A stretch of DNA of 64,000 bases from Candidatus Saccharimonadales bacterium (GCA_041737385.1 JBGSRU010000001.1:3539-67538), one strand, 5' to 3'; numbered from the stretch's first letter, positions 4,860 through 42,463 are shown. Numbers and translations: made by a program. The notes: generated from the letters alone by a model not told the origin.

Positions 4860-4884
4860 CTTTAGTCATATAGTGTCAATATAC

Positions 4885-4904
4885 TGGCGGGCCCGACCGG
4901 ATTT
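4885..4904 (-). repeat. exact 20-nt copy of the tRNA-Asp 3' end (T-loop/acceptor/CCA)
   Basis: tggcgggcccgaccggattt is identical to 5063-5082, 178 bp away in direct orientation. Confidence 0.85.
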
Positions 4905-5027
4905 CGCTTTGCTTGAACGTCAATAAATTTCTTACATGCTAAGAGGTAGCATGACAAAATTTTTGTCTGTAGACCCGACGCCGCTTTGCGGCTATGCCGG
5001 TTCTTAATCCGGATCGGGTTCGTTAAA

Positions 5028-5062
5028 ATAAAAAAACCACCATAAAGGTGATTTTCTTATTT
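5028..5062 (-). terminator. rho-independent terminator of tRNA-Asp
   Basis: Minus strand: aatcacc-tttat-ggtggtt hairpin followed by a U-run, directly after the tRNA CCA. Confidence 0.5.
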
Positions 5063-5139
5063 TGGCGGGCCCGACCGGATTTGAACCGGCGATCTCCTCC
5101 GTGACAGGGAGGCATGTTAGGCCACTACACCACGAGCCC
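5063..5139 (-). tRNA. tRNA-Asp (GTC)
   Basis: Hand-folded 77-nt cloverleaf: acceptor GGGCUCG/CGGGCCC, anticodon stem CCUCC/GGAGG, loop CUGUCAC, T-loop UUCAAAU, discriminator G, encoded CCA. Confidence 0.9.
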
Positions 5140-5519: not shown

Positions 5520-6587
5520 CTACTCAGGCAATGATACATAAAGTCGATATGGCTGGCTATCTTTTCGATCATTCAAACTAGCTGCAAGGTCTTGAAGCCT
5601 GAAGATGATGTGCGCACCTCGTGCACCGCTTCCCTTCTTTTCTAGATTCTTTACGATCTCTAGTGCATAGCCGTTTTCGTACGGGATAACATTGATCCCT
5701 GAATATTGTCCCTCCGACAAACGAAGCAATGTATCGACTGTTTGTTGAGAAACATTACGATTAGTCGGATCTACTTCTCCAAAATCACCGCCAGTTTCTT
5801 TTGTTATTTCTTCATCAGAGTATTCTGCAACTATTTCACTAAACTCAGCTCCTGCTTCGAGTTTTGCAAGCGCTTGCTTAGCGCGGTTTTCCGTTGTCGC
5901 GTCTAGTGCTCGAGTAACTTTTTGCACTAACAATTCGTTAGACAGACTTCTCCTGAAATCGCTAATAGACCAGTTCCAATAGTTGCGGAGTACGTCTTCA
6001 AATATTTCCTCGCTACTTCCGAGTCGTTTTTGCTCTCTGGCAATCCGAATTTGCTCATCAATTTCTTCACTCGATACGGTAACGCCGTTTTCTTCAGCAA
6101 GTATTTTGGTATATGCAAAGTTCACGACATCATCGAGAGCGCGCTTTTTATAGCTTGCGAGCTGAGCCTGCCCAGCCTCTGTCTCAAAACTAAGCTGTTG
6201 TTGCGTTTCGTAATAGTGGATGTAATGCCGAAGTTCAAATAAATAATTCTCATATGCAACAAATGTATTCCCAGTGCGGGCGACTGGGAAAGGTAGGACT
6301 TTTGTCACTTGATACATGAAACCGCTTGAAGTTTGACGTCTGTAGAGCAAAAACACTGTAGTAGTAGCGAACACAAGCACTGAAGCAATAGCGAGAGATA
6401 TAGACAGTATGACAATACGATGTTTTGAGTGCTGAAGTGGATATATATATTTTCGAGCACCGGACAGAATCACCTCTCGGTGTTCGGCAACATTATCGTT
6501 CGTAATACGTGGGACAATGCCGTTTTCAGCTTGCTCTTTTTTTAAGCTGCGTTGTTCTCTAAGCGCTTGGATTTTTTTCTTTACCAC
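5520..6587 (-). CDS. membrane-anchored parvulin/SurA-like peptidyl-prolyl isomerase (PpiD/PrsA-like)
   Basis: N-terminal TM helix, long helical chaperone-like region, then a parvulin-like stretch AKLEAGAEFSEIVAEYSDEE..TGGDFGEV. Confidence 0.5.
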   Translation of the reverse strand: MVKKKIQALREQRSLKKEQAENGIVPRITNDNVAEHREVILSGARKYIYPLQHSKHRIVILSISLAIASVLVFATTTVFLLYRRQTSSGFMYQVTKVLPFPVARTGNTFVAYENYLFELRHYIHYYETQQQLSFETEAGQAQLASYKKRALDDVVNFAYTKILAEENGVTVSSEEIDEQIRIAREQKRLGSSEEIFEDVLRNYWNWSISDFRRSLSNELLVQKVTRALDATTENRAKQALAKLEAGAEFSEIVAEYSDEEITKETGGDFGEVDPTNRNVSQQTVDTLLRLSEGQYSGINVIPYENGYALEIVKNLEKKGSGARGAHIIFRLQDLAASLNDRKDSQPYRLYVSLPE

Positions 6588-7135: not shown

Positions 7136-7169
7136 ATGCTCTATTTTACGCTAATGGTTTCATAAGTTC

Positions 7170-7194
7170 TAATTGGTGACCTGGGAAGGAGTCG
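7170..7194 (-). repeat. exact 25-nt copy of the tRNA-Arg 3' end plus 5 flanking nt
   Basis: taattggtgacctgggaaggagtcg is identical to 7362-7386, 192 bp away in direct orientation. Confidence 0.85.
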
Positions 7195-7330
7195 CTCACG
7201 CTAGCGCGAGCCCGAAAATACATGACTTTAAAACAAGTTTTCATCAGTATGTTTCCTTGCAAACTGTCACTGGCAGTTTTCACCTTCAACCTATAAAGGT
7301 TTTGACCGACGTCTTCCCGCATCACCTTAT

Positions 7331-7362
7331 AAAAATACCACCTTCAGGGGGTGGCGTTTTTT
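7331..7362. terminator. bidirectional terminator-like hairpin after tRNA-Arg
   Basis: ccacc-ttcaggg-ggtgg stem-loop with T-runs on both strands. Confidence 0.5.
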
Positions 7363-7365
7363 AAT

Positions 7366-7441
7366 TGGTGACCTGGGAAGGAGTCGAACCTTCAACCTTT
7401 TCCTTAGGACGGAACTGCTCTATCCATTGAGCTACCAGGCC
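7366..7441 (-). tRNA. tRNA-Arg (CCT)
   Basis: Hand-folded 76-nt cloverleaf: acceptor GGCCUGG/CCAGGUC, D arm GCUC-AAUGGAUA-GAGC, anticodon loop GUCCUAA, T arm GAAGG-UUCGACU-CCUUC, encoded CCA. Confidence 0.85.
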
Positions 7442-29879: not shown

Positions 29880-30028
29880 TATTCTATATTCCTTCTGCGC
29901 CTAATTTCGTTACTTCGTAAAAATATACACATAAAGTATACAATATTACCGCTTGATAGACAAGCATAATTCACCCACACTAATTTCTACTGCTCAGCTC
30001 TCATACAACTTAAAGAACTTGAACTTAG

Positions 30029-30114
30029 GAGAACTCAAGGTCCAACCTCTATAGGTGTATGAGAACTCAAAGAGAACTCAAGAGAACTCAAGGTCCAACC
30101 TCTATAGGTGTATG
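30029..30114. repeat. two 33-nt direct repeats plus three gagaactcaa decamers
   Basis: gagaactcaaggtccaacctctataggtgtatg at 30029-30061 and 30082-30114; contains the small hairpin acct-ctat-aggt. Confidence 0.8.
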
Positions 30115-39739: not shown

Positions 39740-40015
39740 CTATCTTATTTTTTGTAGGCTACTGCGAATCCAACTTTCAATTTCTGTAACGTCACCGTGG
39801 CTCATAACGGCTTCGTCCATCGATTGACAAATGTTTTCAATTTGTTTCAAGTCATCCCTGATTGTGTAAGGGTTTTTCTTAACTTGAACATCATCTTCTA
39901 GTTTTTGGAAAACTTTTTCAAGTTTTCTCGCGTCAGCGTGGCTTGGTTCATCTATGCAGTCTCTCATCCGGTGTTGCATTGATATCACTTGCTTGTAGTA
40001 GTTGTCATAATCCAT
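39740..40015 (-). CDS. hypothetical small helical protein
   Basis: 91-aa ORF, no motif. Confidence 0.4.
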   Translation of the reverse strand: MDYDNYYKQVISMQHRMRDCIDEPSHADARKLEKVFQKLEDDVQVKKNPYTIRDDLKQIENICQSMDEAVMSHGDVTEIESWIRSSLQKIR

Positions 40016-40062
40016 GCTATTGCTCCTTATGTTAGTCCGCGCATCCAGTTCCGTTATAGCGA

Positions 40063-40422
40063 CTAGCTAAAATCTGAATCGAATTGCTTACTCAATAACT
40101 CTTCTAGTTCTTTGGCGATAACGTTCAGTGCGCTATACACACTATTACTCATTGCACCCCTCTGATGCAACTCAAACAGATCACTACCTACTTCGTTTAA
40201 ATCTTTTTCAGCATTTTTTATCATCAGAGATTGTTCTGTTGCGTTAAATGCAGTAGATATACCACTTATATACTGCTTCATGTTCCCAAGGTGGTTATGA
40301 AGTGAAGCAATTGTTCTATCCGGAAAATCGGTGTTTTTTAGCCCAGATTCATTAATCTCTGGGTAGCTATTCACCCGTTCGATCAATTCCAAAAGCTTTA
40401 ATATGGTTACGTTATCTTCCAC
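40063..40422 (-). CDS. hypothetical small helical protein
   Basis: 119-aa ORF, no motif. Confidence 0.4.
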   Translation of the reverse strand: MEDNVTILKLLELIERVNSYPEINESGLKNTDFPDRTIASLHNHLGNMKQYISGISTAFNATEQSLMIKNAEKDLNEVGSDLFELHQRGAMSNSVYSALNVIAKELEELLSKQFDSDFS

Positions 40423-40431
40423 GCCTAAAAA

Positions 40432-40635
40432 CTATCCGTGGTTAACAAATGGTAATAATGCGAGGTGTCGTGCGCGCTTGATAGCTTTTGAAAGCTGACG
40501 TTGTTTGCTTTCAGCGAGACCTGTTTTCTTTCGTTGTTCGATTTGTCCGTATTGGTTCACATATCGTTGCAAGGTCTTGAAGTCCTTGTAATCAAAATAT
40601 GGAATATCTGTCTTGTGTTTAAAAATTTTAGCCAT
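40432..40635 (-). CDS. rpsR: 30S ribosomal protein S18
   Basis: ...LQRYVNQYGQIEQRKKTGLAESKQRQLSKAIKRARHLALLPF. Confidence 0.9.
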   Translation of the reverse strand: MAKIFKHKTDIPYFDYKDFKTLQRYVNQYGQIEQRKKTGLAESKQRQLSKAIKRARHLALLPFVNHG

Positions 40636-40766
40636 ATAGTTTCCGCTTCGCTACTCAAGACAAACCTACGGTTTTTCTCGACGCGCGGGACAGTGAAATA
40701 AATTCTCTGTTCCGGCTGCTCTTTTCCCTTGAGCTACAAGGGCTCCCGAGCGTAACGTTCCTTTCT
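40636..40766 (-). repeat. structured repeat copy A (candidate 5'-UTR RNA of rpsR)
   Basis: About 75% identical to 41447-41579. Helices P0-P3 can be drawn with compensatory changes. The element spans from the SD-like GAAAGGA box to the rpsR AUG. Confidence 0.65.
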
Positions 40767-40889
40767 TAACTTATTTAATTATTCTTGTGGTACTGGTACT
40801 TGTTGAACTTCAGCTGCCGGTGTTATTGCTCGCATGTCTCTTGTAACAACTACCGGTGTTTCAACTGTAGTACCCATTTACTATGTAGT

Positions 40890-40965
40890 GCTCAGGGGTG
40901 AGCAGCCGGCCTGAACGAATTTATTTAGTTCGTCCGCGCGATGAGAGGGGATATTCCACTCTCAT
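40890..40965 (+). repeat. structured repeat copy C (inverted, partial)
   Basis: gagcagccgg-[hairpin with loop gaatttattt]-tccgcgcg on the opposite strand. The stem sequence differs from A/B (GAAC/GUUC vs ACAG/CUGU) but pairing is kept. Confidence 0.55.
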
Positions 40966-40969
40966 GGTA

Positions 40970-41446
40970 TTAAAAAGGGATGTCGTCCAAATTAATAGGC
41001 TCGTCGCCAATATCGTCAGACGTTGTTTCTTTCTTCTTGGCTGGAGCTGAGCTTGAATCAGCGCTAGAACTGCTTGAAGAGCTTGACGTAGAACTATTTC
41101 CACCACTTCCGCCTTCATTGCCACCACCAACAAAGTTGAAGTCTTCTACGACTACCTCAACCTTGCTGCGCTTTTGGCCTTCTTGCTCCCATGATCGCTG
41201 TTGTAAGCGTCCTGACACCAATATACCGCTACCTTTGCGCATGTATTGATTGATGATCTCTGCAGGTTTTGCCCAGATATTACAGTCGACATAGTCCACT
41301 GCTTCTTGCTGCTCACCTTGTGCATTTTTCCACGTACGATTAACCGCTAGTGAAAAACTACAGACCGTCTGACCATTAGGTGTTGTTCTCAGCTCAGGAT
41401 CCCGAGTTAAGTTACCCATCAATACTACTTTGTTAAATCCTCGCAT
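40970..41446 (-). CDS. ssb: single-stranded DNA-binding protein
   Basis: OB-fold N-terminus MRGFNKVVLMGNLTRDPELR, Gly/Ser-rich linker, acidic tip DDIPF. Confidence 0.9.
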   Translation of the reverse strand: MRGFNKVVLMGNLTRDPELRTTPNGQTVCSFSLAVNRTWKNAQGEQQEAVDYVDCNIWAKPAEIINQYMRKGSGILVSGRLQQRSWEQEGQKRSKVEVVVEDFNFVGGGNEGGSGGNSSTSSSSSSSSADSSSAPAKKKETTSDDIGDEPINLDDIPF

Positions 41447-41579
41447 ACTTTTATCGCTTCGCTAGTTCCAAGCAAAACCTACAGTTTTACTTTGGCGCGC
41501 GGGACAGTGAAATAGATTCCCTGTTCCGGCTGCTCTTTTCCCTTTGGGCTCCCGAGCCTAACGAATACTCTCCTTTCAT
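41447..41579 (-). repeat. structured repeat copy B (candidate 5'-UTR RNA of ssb)
   Basis: Same architecture as copy A; runs from GAAAGGAG to the ssb AUG. Confidence 0.65.
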
Positions 41580-41736
41580 CTTTTACTTACGTTCTGGTGT
41601 CGTTGTACAATTTCATTTTACCACTCAATTCGCCGGATTTTGTGAAAGCCTGCTTTTAGCGGACTAAGGGCGTAATGCAGCGAAGCGAAATGGTCTGATG
41701 AAAGTTGGCTTACGCCAAAATCCAATCACCCTCACC

Positions 41737-42126
41737 TTAGTCTTCGTCGTCTGAATCGTCTTCGTCGTCATCATCTTCGTCAGTCATTTGACTAAGACGC
41801 TTATCACGACTAACTTTCATCGCTTCTGCTTTAGCAATAGCCTTAACGTCAGGTTTAGTAATCAAAAATCTGATCACTTCACCAGTAATATTTAGTGCGT
41901 CATTTAGCGTACGTACACCTTGAGCAGGTAGCTCAAGCGTATAAAAAACATACACTGCATGTTCGTGACCTGCGATTTTGTACGCAAGCTTTCGTTTGCC
42001 CCAATTATCGGTTTCGGTGATTTTACCACCAGCAGCATCGACAAGCTTCTCAACTTGTTTTGTTGCTTTGTCTAGATCTATTTCTAGATCTGGGTGAAAA
42101 AGCACAGCTAATTCGTAACTGTCCAT
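41737..42126 (-). CDS. rpsF: 30S ribosomal protein S6 with poly-acidic tail
   Basis: MDSYELAVLFHPDLE...; C-terminus DEDDDDEDDSDDED. Confidence 0.9.
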   Translation of the reverse strand: MDSYELAVLFHPDLEIDLDKATKQVEKLVDAAGGKITETDNWGKRKLAYKIAGHEHAVYVFYTLELPAQGVRTLNDALNITGEVIRFLITKPDVKAIAKAEAMKVSRDKRLSQMTDEDDDDEDDSDDED

Positions 42127-42151
42127 CTAGTATCCTTTCTTTGGTTTAATC

Positions 42152-42228
42152 AGTCTATGTACCTAAGAGTCATAGACTAAAGTTGTTATTACAGGTGTAA
42201 TTATACACTAAATCAAATATTTATTCAA
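42152..42228 (-). promoter_or_regulatory. rpsF promoter (TTGAAT-17-TATAAT) and leader hairpin
   Basis: -35 at 42223-42228, -10 at 42200-42205 (minus strand). 8-bp hairpin AGUCUAUG/CAUAGACU at 42152-42178 just upstream of SD AGAAAGGA. Confidence 0.5.
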
Positions 42229-42232
42229 AATT

Positions 42233-42463
42233 CTATACTTGCCAAATTCTGAAAACAAGACTATGAACGGGAATAACTGCAAACATTCCAAAAAAGATGG
42301 CAAATATAATCACGAATGTTCTTTCAGGAATTGTCTTCCTCACAGATTTTGGCAAAAATTTATTATAAATAATGTGCCCAAAAATTGAAAATAGATATAT
42401 ACAAATTCCTACTCCTACAATAATCGCTGTCAAGTACAATAAAATAACTACTAGATAACCCAT
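42233..42463 (-). CDS. small membrane protein
   Basis: 76 aa, two hydrophobic helices. Confidence 0.4.
   Translation of the reverse strand: MGYLVVILLYLTAIIVGVGICIYLFSIFGHIIYNKFLPKSVRKTIPERTFVIIFAIFFGMFAVIPVHSLVFRIWQV

Follow-up and report, generated by a model that had tools for sequence, protein, structure and literature searches.

The rpsF-ssb-rpsR operon of a Candidatus Saccharimonadales bacterium, contained in the 64,000-nt stretch of DNA analysed here (the window), raises the question of what occupies its two long spacers of 290 and 334 nt, and why. All three genes lie on the minus strand. A sequence-only reading had proposed that each spacer holds a copy (A and B, about 75% identical) of one structured element, with a third, inverted copy nearby, and had named a cis-regulatory leader, a processing site and a structured MITE as candidates. 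The relevant features are the following:

41737..42126, minus strand: rpsF (ribosomal protein S6), an ORF, with Pfam Ribosomal_S6 on an identical Logan contig
41679..41687, minus strand: CGCTTCGCT, read from the sequence, 9 nt perfectly complementary to the AGCGAAGCG with which copy B ends on its 3' side
41447..41579, minus strand: copy B, long form, ssb 5' leader (covariance model 74.7 bits; fold)
Within copy B: Shine-Dalgarno (SD) sequence GAAAGGAG, 41577-41570; P0 5' strand, 41565-41558; purine tract, 41545-41533; P2, 41531-41496; P3, 41495-41468; P0 3' strand, 41465-41458; spacer, 41457-41447; ssb ATG, 41446
40970..41446, minus strand: ssb, downstream of copy B, an ORF with Pfam SSB
40888..40984, plus strand: copy C, short 'G-type' form (covariance model 55 bits, E ~1e-12; fold)
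Within copy C: tract AGGGGTGAG, 40894-40902; P2, 40904-40940; P3 GAGAGGGG/CCACTCTC, 40941-40965
40636..40766, minus strand: copy A, long form, rpsR 5' leader (covariance model 93.7 bits; RNA and DNA folds; alignments)
Within copy A: SD-like GAAAGGA, 40765-40759; P0 5' strand, 40757-40752; purine tract AAGGGAAAAGAG, 40730-40719; P2 with AGCCGG/CCGCGCG, 40717-40682; P3, 40681-40655; P0 3' strand, 40654-40649; 13-nt spacer, 40648-40636; rpsR ATG, 40635
40432..40635, minus strand: rpsR (ribosomal protein S18), downstream of copy A, an ORF with Pfam PF01084 and 2151 homologues

Copies A and B are both real, and their measured identity is 81% (110/135, in an alignment of about 135 nt); a 49-nt core common to both reaches 96% identity, and the chance expectation of the core pattern in the window is 0.00. 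The inverted third copy was placed by the covariance model at 40888-40984 on the plus strand (55 bits). Its P3 side stops 4 nt short of the ssb stop codon (40970-40972), and it has a counterpart in L101 (2326-2421) at the same position and in the same orientation after ssb. A covariance model search with filters off found no further copies in the whole 64-kb window, and both window tRNAs are without the element, as is the 5' side of rpsF, the first gene of the operon. The common fold proposed for A and B was also recovered: their minimum-free-energy RNA folds contain the GCUC/GAGC helix with inner P1, P2 and P3, with z-scores of -3.4 (A) and -3.1 (B), and the strands of the closing helix P0 read CGUUAC/GUAGCG (copy A) and UUCGUUAG/CUAGCGAA (copy B), with a change from C:G to G:C at the innermost pair. 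Two details of that proposal have to be corrected. Firstly, the copies do not end exactly at the start codon, since the structured part stops 13 nt (A) or 9-11 nt (B) before the ATG. Secondly, GAAUYUAUUU, described as a loop, is mostly helix, in which GAA pairs with UUC and leaves UUUAU as the true loop.

Searches beyond the window show that A, B and C are members of a previously undescribed family of non-coding structured repeats of roughly 85-135 nt. In a one-genome-per-species collection the exact core pattern occurs at 36 loci; the 35 of these that are real copies are nearly all labelled Saccharibacteria or Saccharimonadales, and the pattern is also found at 65 metagenome loci. Among the copies found, the family is confined almost wholly to Saccharibacteria genomes. 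One Acidobacteriota locus (L015) fits the search pattern but has neither the tract nor P3 and scores only 19 bits; it was treated as a chance match. No match to the exact core pattern was found in IMG/VR viral contigs, which gives no hint of carriage by phages. Covariance model R1 retrieved 46 + 75 copies, of which 108, with lengths of 70-135 nt, are distinct, at about 100 loci; these counts are approximate because retrieval was seeded by the exact P2-loop pattern and neighbouring genes are crude ORF calls. Copies within one genome are divergent, and no near-identical burst was seen. The statement that the element resembles no described motif holds up: at gathering thresholds Rfam 15 reports only two tRNAs in the whole window, and at E<=10 it reports no family in 40300-42300, which excludes known r-protein leaders, ribozymes, riboswitches and STAXI-like motifs. 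A literature search found the element nowhere described. A family with more than 100 examples and textbook covariation is thus absent from Rfam; candidate-phyla-radiation genomes are tiny, tightly packed and nearly unexplored for non-coding elements.

From 5' to 3', the core consists of a purine tract (consensus GGGAAAAGAG), hairpin P2, hairpin P3 (GAGAAAAACC...GGUUUGUCUC, with variants) and often a GCGAAGC mini-hairpin; P2 is closed by near-invariant AGCCGG/CCGCGCG and has a covarying stem and a UUUAU loop. The proposal that selection acts on single-strand structure is well supported by covariation. In 66 further distinct copies, 17 of the 20 base pairs of P2 and P3 have changed on both sides, and 95.5% of cells are paired, compared with 82% in shuffles and 33-53% when the partners are slid; none of 500 shuffles reached the observed covariation values. 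Compensatory change is present even in the 'invariant' parts, where AGCCGG/CCGCGCG becomes AGCCCG/CGGCGCG and GAA/UUC becomes GGA/UCC. Copies occupying the same site in different species likewise keep their pairing by compensatory change, as exemplified by the 5S leaders in seven species, the rpmC-rpsQ junction in L011 and L092, and copy C compared with L101:2326. Identity of the element between species is 65-87%, against 37-62% at 4-fold degenerate sites; for the ssb-leader ortholog of copy B in L074 the values are 81% and 46%. The helices differ in how widely they are kept. P1 (CCCUUG/CAAGGG), although recovered in the folds of A and B, is not a family feature, as it is found in this genome and L101 only and is replaced elsewhere by other small hairpins or by none. 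P0 is confined to a long-form subfamily wedged between the Shine-Dalgarno sequence and the AUG, within which it covaries (GCTTCGC/GCGAAGC becomes ACTCC/GGAGT in L061). The P2 of this subfamily is invariant across six genes and eight genomes, and in the 23S-leader copies a mini-hairpin with a 3-nt loop takes the place of P2.

In sequence, the 5' purine tract mirrors the 5' strand of P3, and the two co-vary. The rule tested was that a tract A lies opposite an A-U pair and a tract G opposite a G-C or C-G pair. It is obeyed by 818 of 984 cells (83%), a share that drops to 42-56% when the register is moved by 1-2, and no permutation reached the observed value in either of two tests (0/2000 and 0/20000). 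The lengths of the A-runs co-vary as well, runs of 6, 5, 4 and 3 in P3 going with runs of 5, 4, 3 and 2 in the tract. The alternative of a switch, in which the tract would form an antiparallel Watson-Crick helix with the 3' strand of P3, was rejected because it shows no covariation (4.46 vs 4.36; 203 of 2000 permutations reach the value). Thus, mirror symmetry and covariation together predict that a single strand folds into a hairpin-connected intrastrand triple helix, whose predicted strand order (reverse-Hoogsteen, purine, pyrimidine) fits the 'class I, purine motif' intrastrand triplex. The order of the blocks and the mirror symmetry of the first two agree with the PIT/ITxF definition of this class, which also calls for loops of 1-6 nt joining the blocks (PMC4666352); here the first connector is the 36-40-nt P2 hairpin, and the second loop has 3-5 nt. 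The closest known systems are the bacterial intrastrand triplex elements BoxC, PIT and TM-ECO (Hoyne & Maher 2000-2002; Holder et al. 2015, PMC4666352). Like the element, these are short, dispersed and non-coding, their three blocks on one strand can fold into a purine-motif triplex, and their complementary strand automatically carries the pyrimidine-motif counterpart. They differ in that their Hoogsteen block is joined through a 1-6-nt loop instead of a covarying P2, in that their triplex is backed by a single conserved sequence instead of by covariation over many variants, and in that TM-ECO belongs to class II; in addition, the orientation and context of the element are strongly non-random (rRNA, tRNA and r-protein leaders, SD-AUG spacers). 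The natural intrastrand purine-motif triple helix of the element appears to be the first that is supported by covariation.

Does this structure operate in DNA or in RNA? The tRNA core holds purine base triples. Natural RNA triple helices are known from the ENE of PAN and MALAT1, the SAM-II and preQ1-II riboswitches and telomerase RNA (PMC7583470), and they share with the element a third strand from the same molecule that runs along a helix and is held in register by hairpin or pseudoknot topology. However, the known long RNA triplexes are of the parallel pyrimidine motif (U.A-U, C+.G-C; PMC7583470), whereas the third strand of the element is purine-rich, antiparallel and extends over 7-10 consecutive positions. 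A purine-motif triplex formed in the transcript would be a natural RNA triplex type so far undescribed, and might serve as a common leader, responsive to a factor or to Mg2+ or polyamines, that tags the rRNA, tRNA, r-protein, EF-Tu and NusA transcripts of Saccharibacteria, its long form switching translation on by joining a split SD and AUG. We consider this quite unlikely, but if true, such a leader would give these reduced genomes one RNA-based handle on the output of the translation apparatus. An early impression that G-U wobbles exceed A-C mismatches, which would have marked the structure as RNA- and strand-specific, failed when all 108 copies were counted (39 vs 28); as the difference is not significant (p=0.22), the argument was dropped.

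The absence of a G-U preference, together with the fact that DNA parameters predict the same folds on both strands, is what would be expected if the element were a functional site in DNA, whose purine-tract strand folds whenever it is single-stranded, as in the non-template strand of heavily transcribed genes or the lagging-strand template. Such a site might keep promoter-proximal DNA open, absorb supercoils, stabilise R-loops, prime, or act as a recombination hotspot. Many copies carry GCGAAGC at the 3' end, a sequence that as DNA makes a hairpin of unusual stability, and the sense copies in highly transcribed genes put the tract on the non-template strand. The covarying purine motif itself is well established for DNA and, according to Semerad & Maher (1994) as cited in PMC4666352, has been reported to exclude RNA strands; the BoxC, PIT and TM intrastrand triplex repeats have been tied to polymerase arrest and to genome instability and rearrangement (PMC4666352). 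Nevertheless, we regard a DNA site as improbable, because mid-operon and rRNA-internal copies lie far from promoters, because one locus holds copies in both sense and antisense orientation (C versus A and B), and because the framing of SD and AUG by P0 makes sense only in RNA.

A comparison with other genomes bears directly on the role first proposed for the element, that of an operon-specific cis-regulatory leader bound by S6:S18 or SSB, or of a processing site uncoupling ssb from the r-protein genes. Two copies do stand directly 5' of ssb and rpsR, and the element recurs before these genes in relatives (L012, L074, L101, L009 and L040). However, it is absent from all four related rpsF-ssb-rpsR operons sampled via RpsR (L103-L106), in which the ssb stop and the rpsR start are 8 nt apart, as TAAGGAGnnnnATG. 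Moreover, copies stand before and in rRNA genes, before tRNAs and before many unrelated genes. S6:S18 regulation acts at rpsF, the one gene of the operon without a copy. The rpsF (S6:S18) leader and the element thus occur in the same operon, but the element is not located 5' of rpsF, is absent from related operons while present elsewhere, and matches no Rfam r-protein leader. A leader specific to this operon is therefore hardly credible, and the element is most likely no S6:S18 or SSB sensor.

Its absence from 4/4 related operons with an 8-nt spacer marks the element as a derived insertion, and the differences in presence, together with duplications of flanking gene ends, indicate that it has spread as DNA. 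Flanking repeats of 23-55 nt, which duplicate the end of the neighbouring gene, accompany about 15 of about 105 copies (about 15%), and the boundaries of the inserts vary by about 10 nt; genes with such duplicated tails include YchF, TlyA and one whose product ends in ...GVRRIKAVLV*. The two members of a repeat pair differ at 35 synonymous versus 6 non-synonymous codons (p ~1e-16). This ratio rules out decayed target-site duplications from a staggered cut, and since the differences are not adenine-specific, VR/TR pairs of the DGR type were rejected too. Flanking duplicates that differ almost only synonymously point to an unusual mode of spread between related genomes, probably by recombination or template switching. 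Against a mobile repeat, nothing in loci of up to 14 kb ties the element to a transposase, an integrase or a reverse transcriptase, and no full-length parent was found. None of the covariance-model hits was a split copy flanking an ORF. Insertion by recombination or template switching is likelier than by a cut-and-paste transposase.

The proposal of a structured MITE that colonised the operon comes nearer to this than the leader does. The element is short, non-coding, multi-copy and dispersed, as MITEs are, but it is not a plain MITE: its core has a variable 5' edge unrelated to the 3' edge, and thus no terminal inverted repeats; only the long-form subfamily has a closing helix, of 6-9 nt, which covaries rather than keeping its sequence; and there is no fixed short target-site duplication, as most copies lack a flanking repeat. 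Nor does it behave as a repeat with conserved termini and no covariation, since covariation is strong and the element exceeds 4-fold sites in conservation. Correia/NEMIS, ERIC, REP/BIME, RUP and BOX are intergenic multi-copy repeats of about 100-150 nt, transcribed together with their neighbours and folded in the RNA, where they can change how stable an mRNA is or how it is processed. The element is likewise short, non-coding and multi-copy. Apart from its edges, it differs from such MITE-like repeats by its low copy number per genome, divergent copies and compensatory changes, by its location inside rRNA genes and between SD and AUG, and by the triple-helix signature. PATEs derived from IS200/IS605 have subterminal hairpins, make no duplication, and show a fixed target motif at the left end and an orientation matching the lagging-strand template. 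The hairpins of the element, the missing duplication in most copies and the GAAAGGA that long forms follow would be compatible with this arrangement; in contrast, GAAAGGA changes from gene to gene in the way expected of a native SD, the insert edges are fuzzy, and opposite orientations occur at one locus.

Based on this, we consider the element to be a triplex-forming dispersed repeat, mobile or recombinogenic, that is tolerated where its RNA is discarded or looped out, a reading to which we give a probability of roughly 0.55. Copies would persist in compact genomes only where a compactly folded insert is harmless, namely in trimmed tRNA and rRNA leaders, in variable rRNA helices and just 3' of stop codons. 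The sites themselves are unusual, as copies lie before each kind of stable RNA, inside rRNA, and in the gap between SD and start codon of highly expressed genes. Nineteen copies end within 30 nt of a same-strand stable-RNA gene (seven 5S, four 16S and eight tRNAs, the latter called by ARAGORN), two more precede 23S, and all five copies within 23S or 16S genes are in the sense orientation (L030:6667, with L065, L032:1722 and L047:3626 in 23S; L055:254 in 16S), whereas only two stable-RNA-adjacent copies are antisense. The rRNA-internal copies replace the tips of variable helices, where other species have a short or different sequence. In this respect they resemble the IVS of Salmonella, Leptospira, Campylobacter and other bacteria, inserts in 23S or 16S that RNase III excises without re-ligation. 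These five copies are also structured sense inserts of about 100 nt in variable helices, but most copies of the element lie outside rRNA genes and their fold is not one extended stem. Nineteen copies adjoin the 3' end of a convergent ORF; between co-directional genes, 41 copies are sense and 16 antisense.

The sense bias at stable-RNA genes, along with the identity of the genes downstream (rpsR, ssb, rpsQ, rplL, rplO, tuf, nusA, dnaK, def and rsmH on the same strand), raises the alternative that the element is a host-beneficial RNA module, a leader or intercistronic domain shared by highly expressed transcripts of the translation apparatus (rRNA, tRNA, r-protein, EF-Tu, NusA), which might block exonucleases as a stabiliser or insulator at the 5' or 3' side, or let a common factor or ion coordinate the output of ribosome components, its dispersal being secondary. 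A host function would also explain the wealth of translation genes downstream, and the divergence of copies within a genome, together with compensatory change at same-site copies, suggests lasting selection on individual loci rather than a purely selfish repeat. Conservation above 4-fold degenerate sites across species, the unchanged P2 of the long form and the precise framing of SD and AUG by P0 are also what such a module would show. On the other hand, four of four related operons and both window tRNAs do without it; about a quarter of the copies are antisense to both neighbours or lie at convergent gene ends and yet keep the fold; many of the neighbours have nothing to do with translation; neither a terminator nor a platform that sequesters the SD was found; and a purine-motif triplex is not expected in RNA. 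We hold a host-beneficial module to be possible but less likely than a tolerated repeat.

The position of the copies before stable RNAs could also suggest an RNA-processing element or a self-cleaving ribozyme of a new kind, from which the downstream RNA would emerge with its 5' end defined; this would explain why copies adjoin mature 5' ends and start regions. Only 2-16 nt separate the end of P3 from the point where tRNAs, 5S and 16S rRNA are annotated to begin, and AGCCGG/CCGCGCG and the P2 loop are near-invariant. However, this distance varies, and abutment is expected anyway in a genome with very short spacers. The invariant nucleotides are base-paired and themselves covary, the 23S-leader copies lack P2 in favour of their mini-hairpin, antisense copies retain the fold, and there is no similarity to an Rfam ribozyme at E<=10. 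Cleavage or processing is accordingly very improbable as the role of the element.

For the long forms, including A and B, the dispersed triplex-forming repeat would have found a different harmless place, the short gap that separates the SD from the start codon. GAAAGGA lies just 5' of P0 and an ATG lies 3' of it in 10 of the 12 long forms, the genes concerned being rpsR, ssb, nusA, tuf, rplL and a gsiB-like gene. The SD is 0-3 nt 5' of P0 and the AUG about 7-13 nt 3' of it, and both are unpaired on either side of P0 in 8/8 folded long forms. Which SD variant is present depends on the gene, ssb having GGAG and rpsR having GGAA or GGAC, and the sequence of the empty site is GAAAGGAnnnnnATG. A conserved promoter within or just upstream of the long form was rejected, since conservation of the sequence upstream is limited to orthologous leaders (window and L074) and does not extend across genes. 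In phage T4 gene 38, the SD and AUG are parted by a stable structure whose closing helix restores a workable distance. The layout of the long form is of this type, with SD and start codon unpaired and flanking a stable structure, and P0 would similarly set the SD-AUG reach; it differs in that the element loops out a multi-helix domain of about 105 nt instead of a small hairpin, and in that the predicted arrangement is a portable module present in at least six genes. By looping the element out, P0 would bring the SD and AUG back within reach of one ribosome, and the ssb and rpsR mRNAs would carry the element as a looped-out, very stable 5'-UTR domain, which may act as a generic stabiliser or insulator. 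A riboswitch would not fit these observations, because no terminator was found 3' of the element, the SD is unpaired in all folds, and copies also occur before tRNA and rRNA genes and in antisense. The element offers a testable model of how triplexes form in vivo and of how a structure can bridge the parts of a translation initiation site.

Two smaller observations concern the operon and its annotation. The 9-mer CGCTTCGCT at 41679-41687, the inverted motif pointed out by the sequence-only reading, is present as the complement of AGCGAAGCG; as a conserved alternative partner of the 3' arm of B it was rejected, since the orthologous leaders of L074 and L012 do not retain it, and it could be the remnant of a 5' arm or a match by chance. 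Finally, the element inflates spacers and rRNA genes, and gene callers run ORFs into it, so that several RpsR entries have 72-83 aa instead of 67.

The rpsF-ssb-rpsR operon of the window has spacers of 290 and 334 nt, and three copies of the element lie within it, as follows.

Genes of the rpsF-ssb-rpsR operon and copies of the element, with the basis of each copy in brackets
42126..41737, minus strand: rpsF
41446..40970, minus strand: ssb
40635..40432, minus strand: rpsR
40636-40766, minus strand: copy A, in the rpsR leader (alignment, MFE fold)
41447-41579, minus strand: copy B, in the ssb leader (alignment, MFE fold)
40888-40984, plus strand: copy C, inverted (R1 covariance model, fold)

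Copies A and B are the same at 110 of 135 aligned positions (81% identity) and have in common a 49-nt core of 96% identity, the pattern of which is expected 0.00 times by chance in the window. Their minimum-free-energy (MFE) folds, with z-scores of -3.4 (A) and -3.1 (B), are unchanged under DNA energy parameters and reproduce the fold proposed in the sequence-only reading, including the flipped innermost pair of the closing helix P0. The inverted third copy of that reading was also recovered, as copy C, in which 4 nt separate the end of hairpin P3 from the stop codon of ssb; CGCTTCGCT is located at 41679-41687. No fourth copy was found in the 64-kb window by a covariance model search with filters off, and Rfam gave no match at the copy region even at E<=10. 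The window derives from a Saccharibacteria-like genome, with an RpsR that shares 82-94% identity with hundreds of S18 proteins from Saccharibacteria. Between rpsR and efp (39740-40422, minus strand) lie two short ORFs (119 and 91 aa) of no obvious family, unlike in relatives, in which efp or NUDIX genes directly follow rpsR. Elsewhere in the window (30021-30114), two copies of a 41-nt direct repeat (family D6), 95% identical, lie 53 nt apart.

The element is a new, widespread and strongly structured repeat family. Its exact P2-region pattern occurs at 36 loci in a one-genome-per-species collection, 35 of which are genuine copies, and almost all of these bear the label Saccharibacteria or Saccharimonadales; the three loci with other labels are suspected to be binning errors. 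The same pattern was found at 65 metagenome loci, with 0 matches in viral contigs. A search with the covariance model R1, built from 39 copies, returned 46 + 75 copies, 108 of them distinct. Compensatory changes, already claimed from A, B and C, were borne out by 66 further distinct copies from metagenomes: the paired fraction of cells is 95.5%, versus 82% in shuffles and 33-53% with slid partners, and 17 of 20 pairs have changes on both sides. Even the near-invariant AGCCGG/CCGCGCG has the compensatory variants AGCCCG/CGGCGCG and AGCCAG/CTG-GC, and the GAA/UUC "loop" bases co-change to GGA/UCC. Of the helices originally proposed, P2 and P3 covary, P0 is confined to the long-form subfamily, and P1 is not conserved in the family. 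In the 23S-leader copies, only a GCGAAGC-like mini-hairpin is left of P2.

Genomic contexts were assigned using Rfam, ARAGORN, BLAST against rRNA and simple ORF calls, on short loci with crude gene calls whose retrieval was seeded by the exact pattern. Nineteen copies end <=30 nt 5' of a same-strand stable-RNA gene (5S at 7 loci, 16S at 4, and 8 tRNAs of differing specificities), reduced copies precede 23S (n=2), and five are located within variable helices of 23S or 16S genes, all in sense orientation. Same-strand protein genes starting within ~40 nt of a copy include rpsR (5), ssb (3), rpsQ (2), rplL (2), rplO, tuf, nusA, dnaK, def, rsmH and a RumA-like methyltransferase, as well as genes for membrane and unknown proteins. 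In 19 cases a copy adjoins a convergent ORF at its 3' end, as with C; among copies whose two neighbours run in the same direction, 41 are sense and 16 antisense. The presence of copies before tRNAs, rRNAs and unrelated genes, together with operons that have none, contradicts the earlier suggestion of an S6:S18 or SSB leader. The element may alternatively serve the host as RNA, within transcripts of translation-apparatus genes. In the 23S gene of CP064992.1, which also contains the element itself, two copies of a different ~135-nt insertion family (GATTTAGCAGA...ATCAGGTTnCAGACGA...CCTGATAAATC; ~4900-5100 and ~5850-6050 of locus L030) occupy two separate helices, indicating that Saccharibacteria rRNA genes host several small insert families.

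The three copies in the window are derived insertions. Copies precede rpsR and/or ssb in the window and at loci L012, L074, L101, L009 and L040, and ssb of L101 is directly followed by an inverted copy resembling C; in none of four related operons reached through diverse RpsR homologues (L103-L106) was a copy present. In these, GGAGnnnn(n)ATG of rpsR comes after the ssb stop, or GAAAGGATTTTTATG in the case of L105. At the site of the window element, L105 has an extra 111-aa ORF without a Pfam match (1251-1586), which marks the ssb-rpsR junction as a recurrent insertion point.

The P2 sequence of A and B is common to 12 long-form copies. In 10 of these, GAAAGGA(G) lies 0-4 nt 5' of P0 and ATG 7-13 nt 3' of it; these ten precede rpsR, ssb, nusA, tuf, rplL or a gsiB-like gene. 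P0 is usually GCTTCGC/GCGAAGC, with compensatory variants (ACTCC/GGAGT in L061; shifted solutions in A and B), and in all eight folded examples SD and AUG are unpaired, one on each side of P0. Which SD variant is present depends on the gene, and at empty sites the same SD lies 4-5 nt from ATG; therefore, the SD was there before the element, which occupies the SD-AUG spacer. With 8-nt operon spacers, this gap would be almost the sole non-coding place free for an insert, which might survive there only if a closing helix rejoined SD and AUG. We infer, with moderate confidence, that P0 preserves ribosome-binding site function in A and B. In phage T4 gene 38, SD and AUG are brought together by a closing helix; the long form resembles it in that a helix joins separate SD and AUG. 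Several database S18 and L7/L12 entries are 5-16 residues too long (RpsR homologues P0003-P0006, P0009, P0025 and P0028; L101:2583, L054:1512). In L101 and L054 the surplus residues (LNSEA...) come from translation of the element's 3' arm, likely also the cause in the database S18 entries.

The purine tract 5' of AGCCGG, read 3'->5', matches the P3 5' strand read 5'->3', forming a mirror repeat.

Purine tract (3'->5') and P3 5' strand (5'->3')
GAGAAAAGGG and GAGAAAAACC
GAGAAAAAGG and GAGAAAAAAC
GAGAAAGG and GAGAAAACCC
GAGAAGGG and GAGAAACCCC
GAGAGGGGA and GAGAGGGGA
GGAAAGG and GGAAAACCC
GAGGGGAGGG and GAGGGGAGGG
AAGAGGGGGA and AGGAGGGGGA

When the conserved A.G mismatch of P3 is skipped, tract A faces A-U pairs and tract G faces G-C or C-G pairs in 818 of 984 cells (83%), versus 42-56% at registers shifted by 1-2, and the observed value was reached by 0/2000 and 0/20000 partner permutations. 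If the tract is instead paired antiparallel to the 3' strand of P3, no covariation signal emerges. A mirror relation cannot arise through replication errors. It is the mark of a third strand running antiparallel to the purine strand of a helix; the P2 hairpin links the tract and P3 strands at the base of P3, the geometry that a third strand requires. Judged by this pattern, the element appears to be a class I purine-motif intrastrand triplex in published nomenclature, the complementary strand of which is automatically the class III pyrimidine-motif counterpart (PMC4666352). Purine-motif triplexes are said not to form with RNA strands, and those of DNA to arrest polymerases (PMC4666352); a DNA-level role of the triplex is a further alternative. 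The folding molecule may be either DNA or RNA, with G-U and A-C pairs in similar numbers (39 vs 28, no significant difference).

Between species, leader plus element is 65-87% identical, versus 37-62% at 4-fold degenerate sites of adjoining genes. Copies of one genome share private features (e.g., GCTCGGGAGCCC in A and B), so that some concerted evolution contributes to this conservation.

Direct repeats of 23-55 nt flank about 15 of ~105 copies, with insert edges that shift by ~10 nt. In most cases the repeated sequence is the final codons of the gene upstream; in L093 it is the start of the downstream gene, and in L043 a terminator. The YchF tail MRPDDVVEFRFNV, with its stop, is present twice with 9 synonymous differences, and gene 3' ends are duplicated on both sides of the element in L082 (2500-2680), L014, L067, L102, L064, L096, L023/L025 and L037/L086. 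Repeat pairs differ at 35 synonymous versus 6 non-synonymous codons (random expectation 23.5% synonymous, p ~1e-16), a bias that rules out a staggered cut followed by neutral decay. The same gene tails have this arrangement in 2-3 species, and within-genome copies are closest to each other. Spread could be homology-assisted between related genomes, by a copy-choice detour or small-circle integration, in which case donor and resident genome would each have supplied one gene tail. We infer, with moderate confidence, that the element is propagated as DNA and survives at sites where such a compact fold does no harm. On the minus strand of the window, tRNA-Asp (5063-5139; region 4880-5139) and tRNA-Arg (7366-7441; region 7167-7441) are each followed by a terminator-like hairpin, ~130 nt and a 25-28-nt duplicate of their own 3' end (4880-4904 vs 5058-5082; 7167-7194 vs 7359-7386), att-like "tail-insert-tail" scars that resemble the gene-tail duplicates around the element elsewhere.
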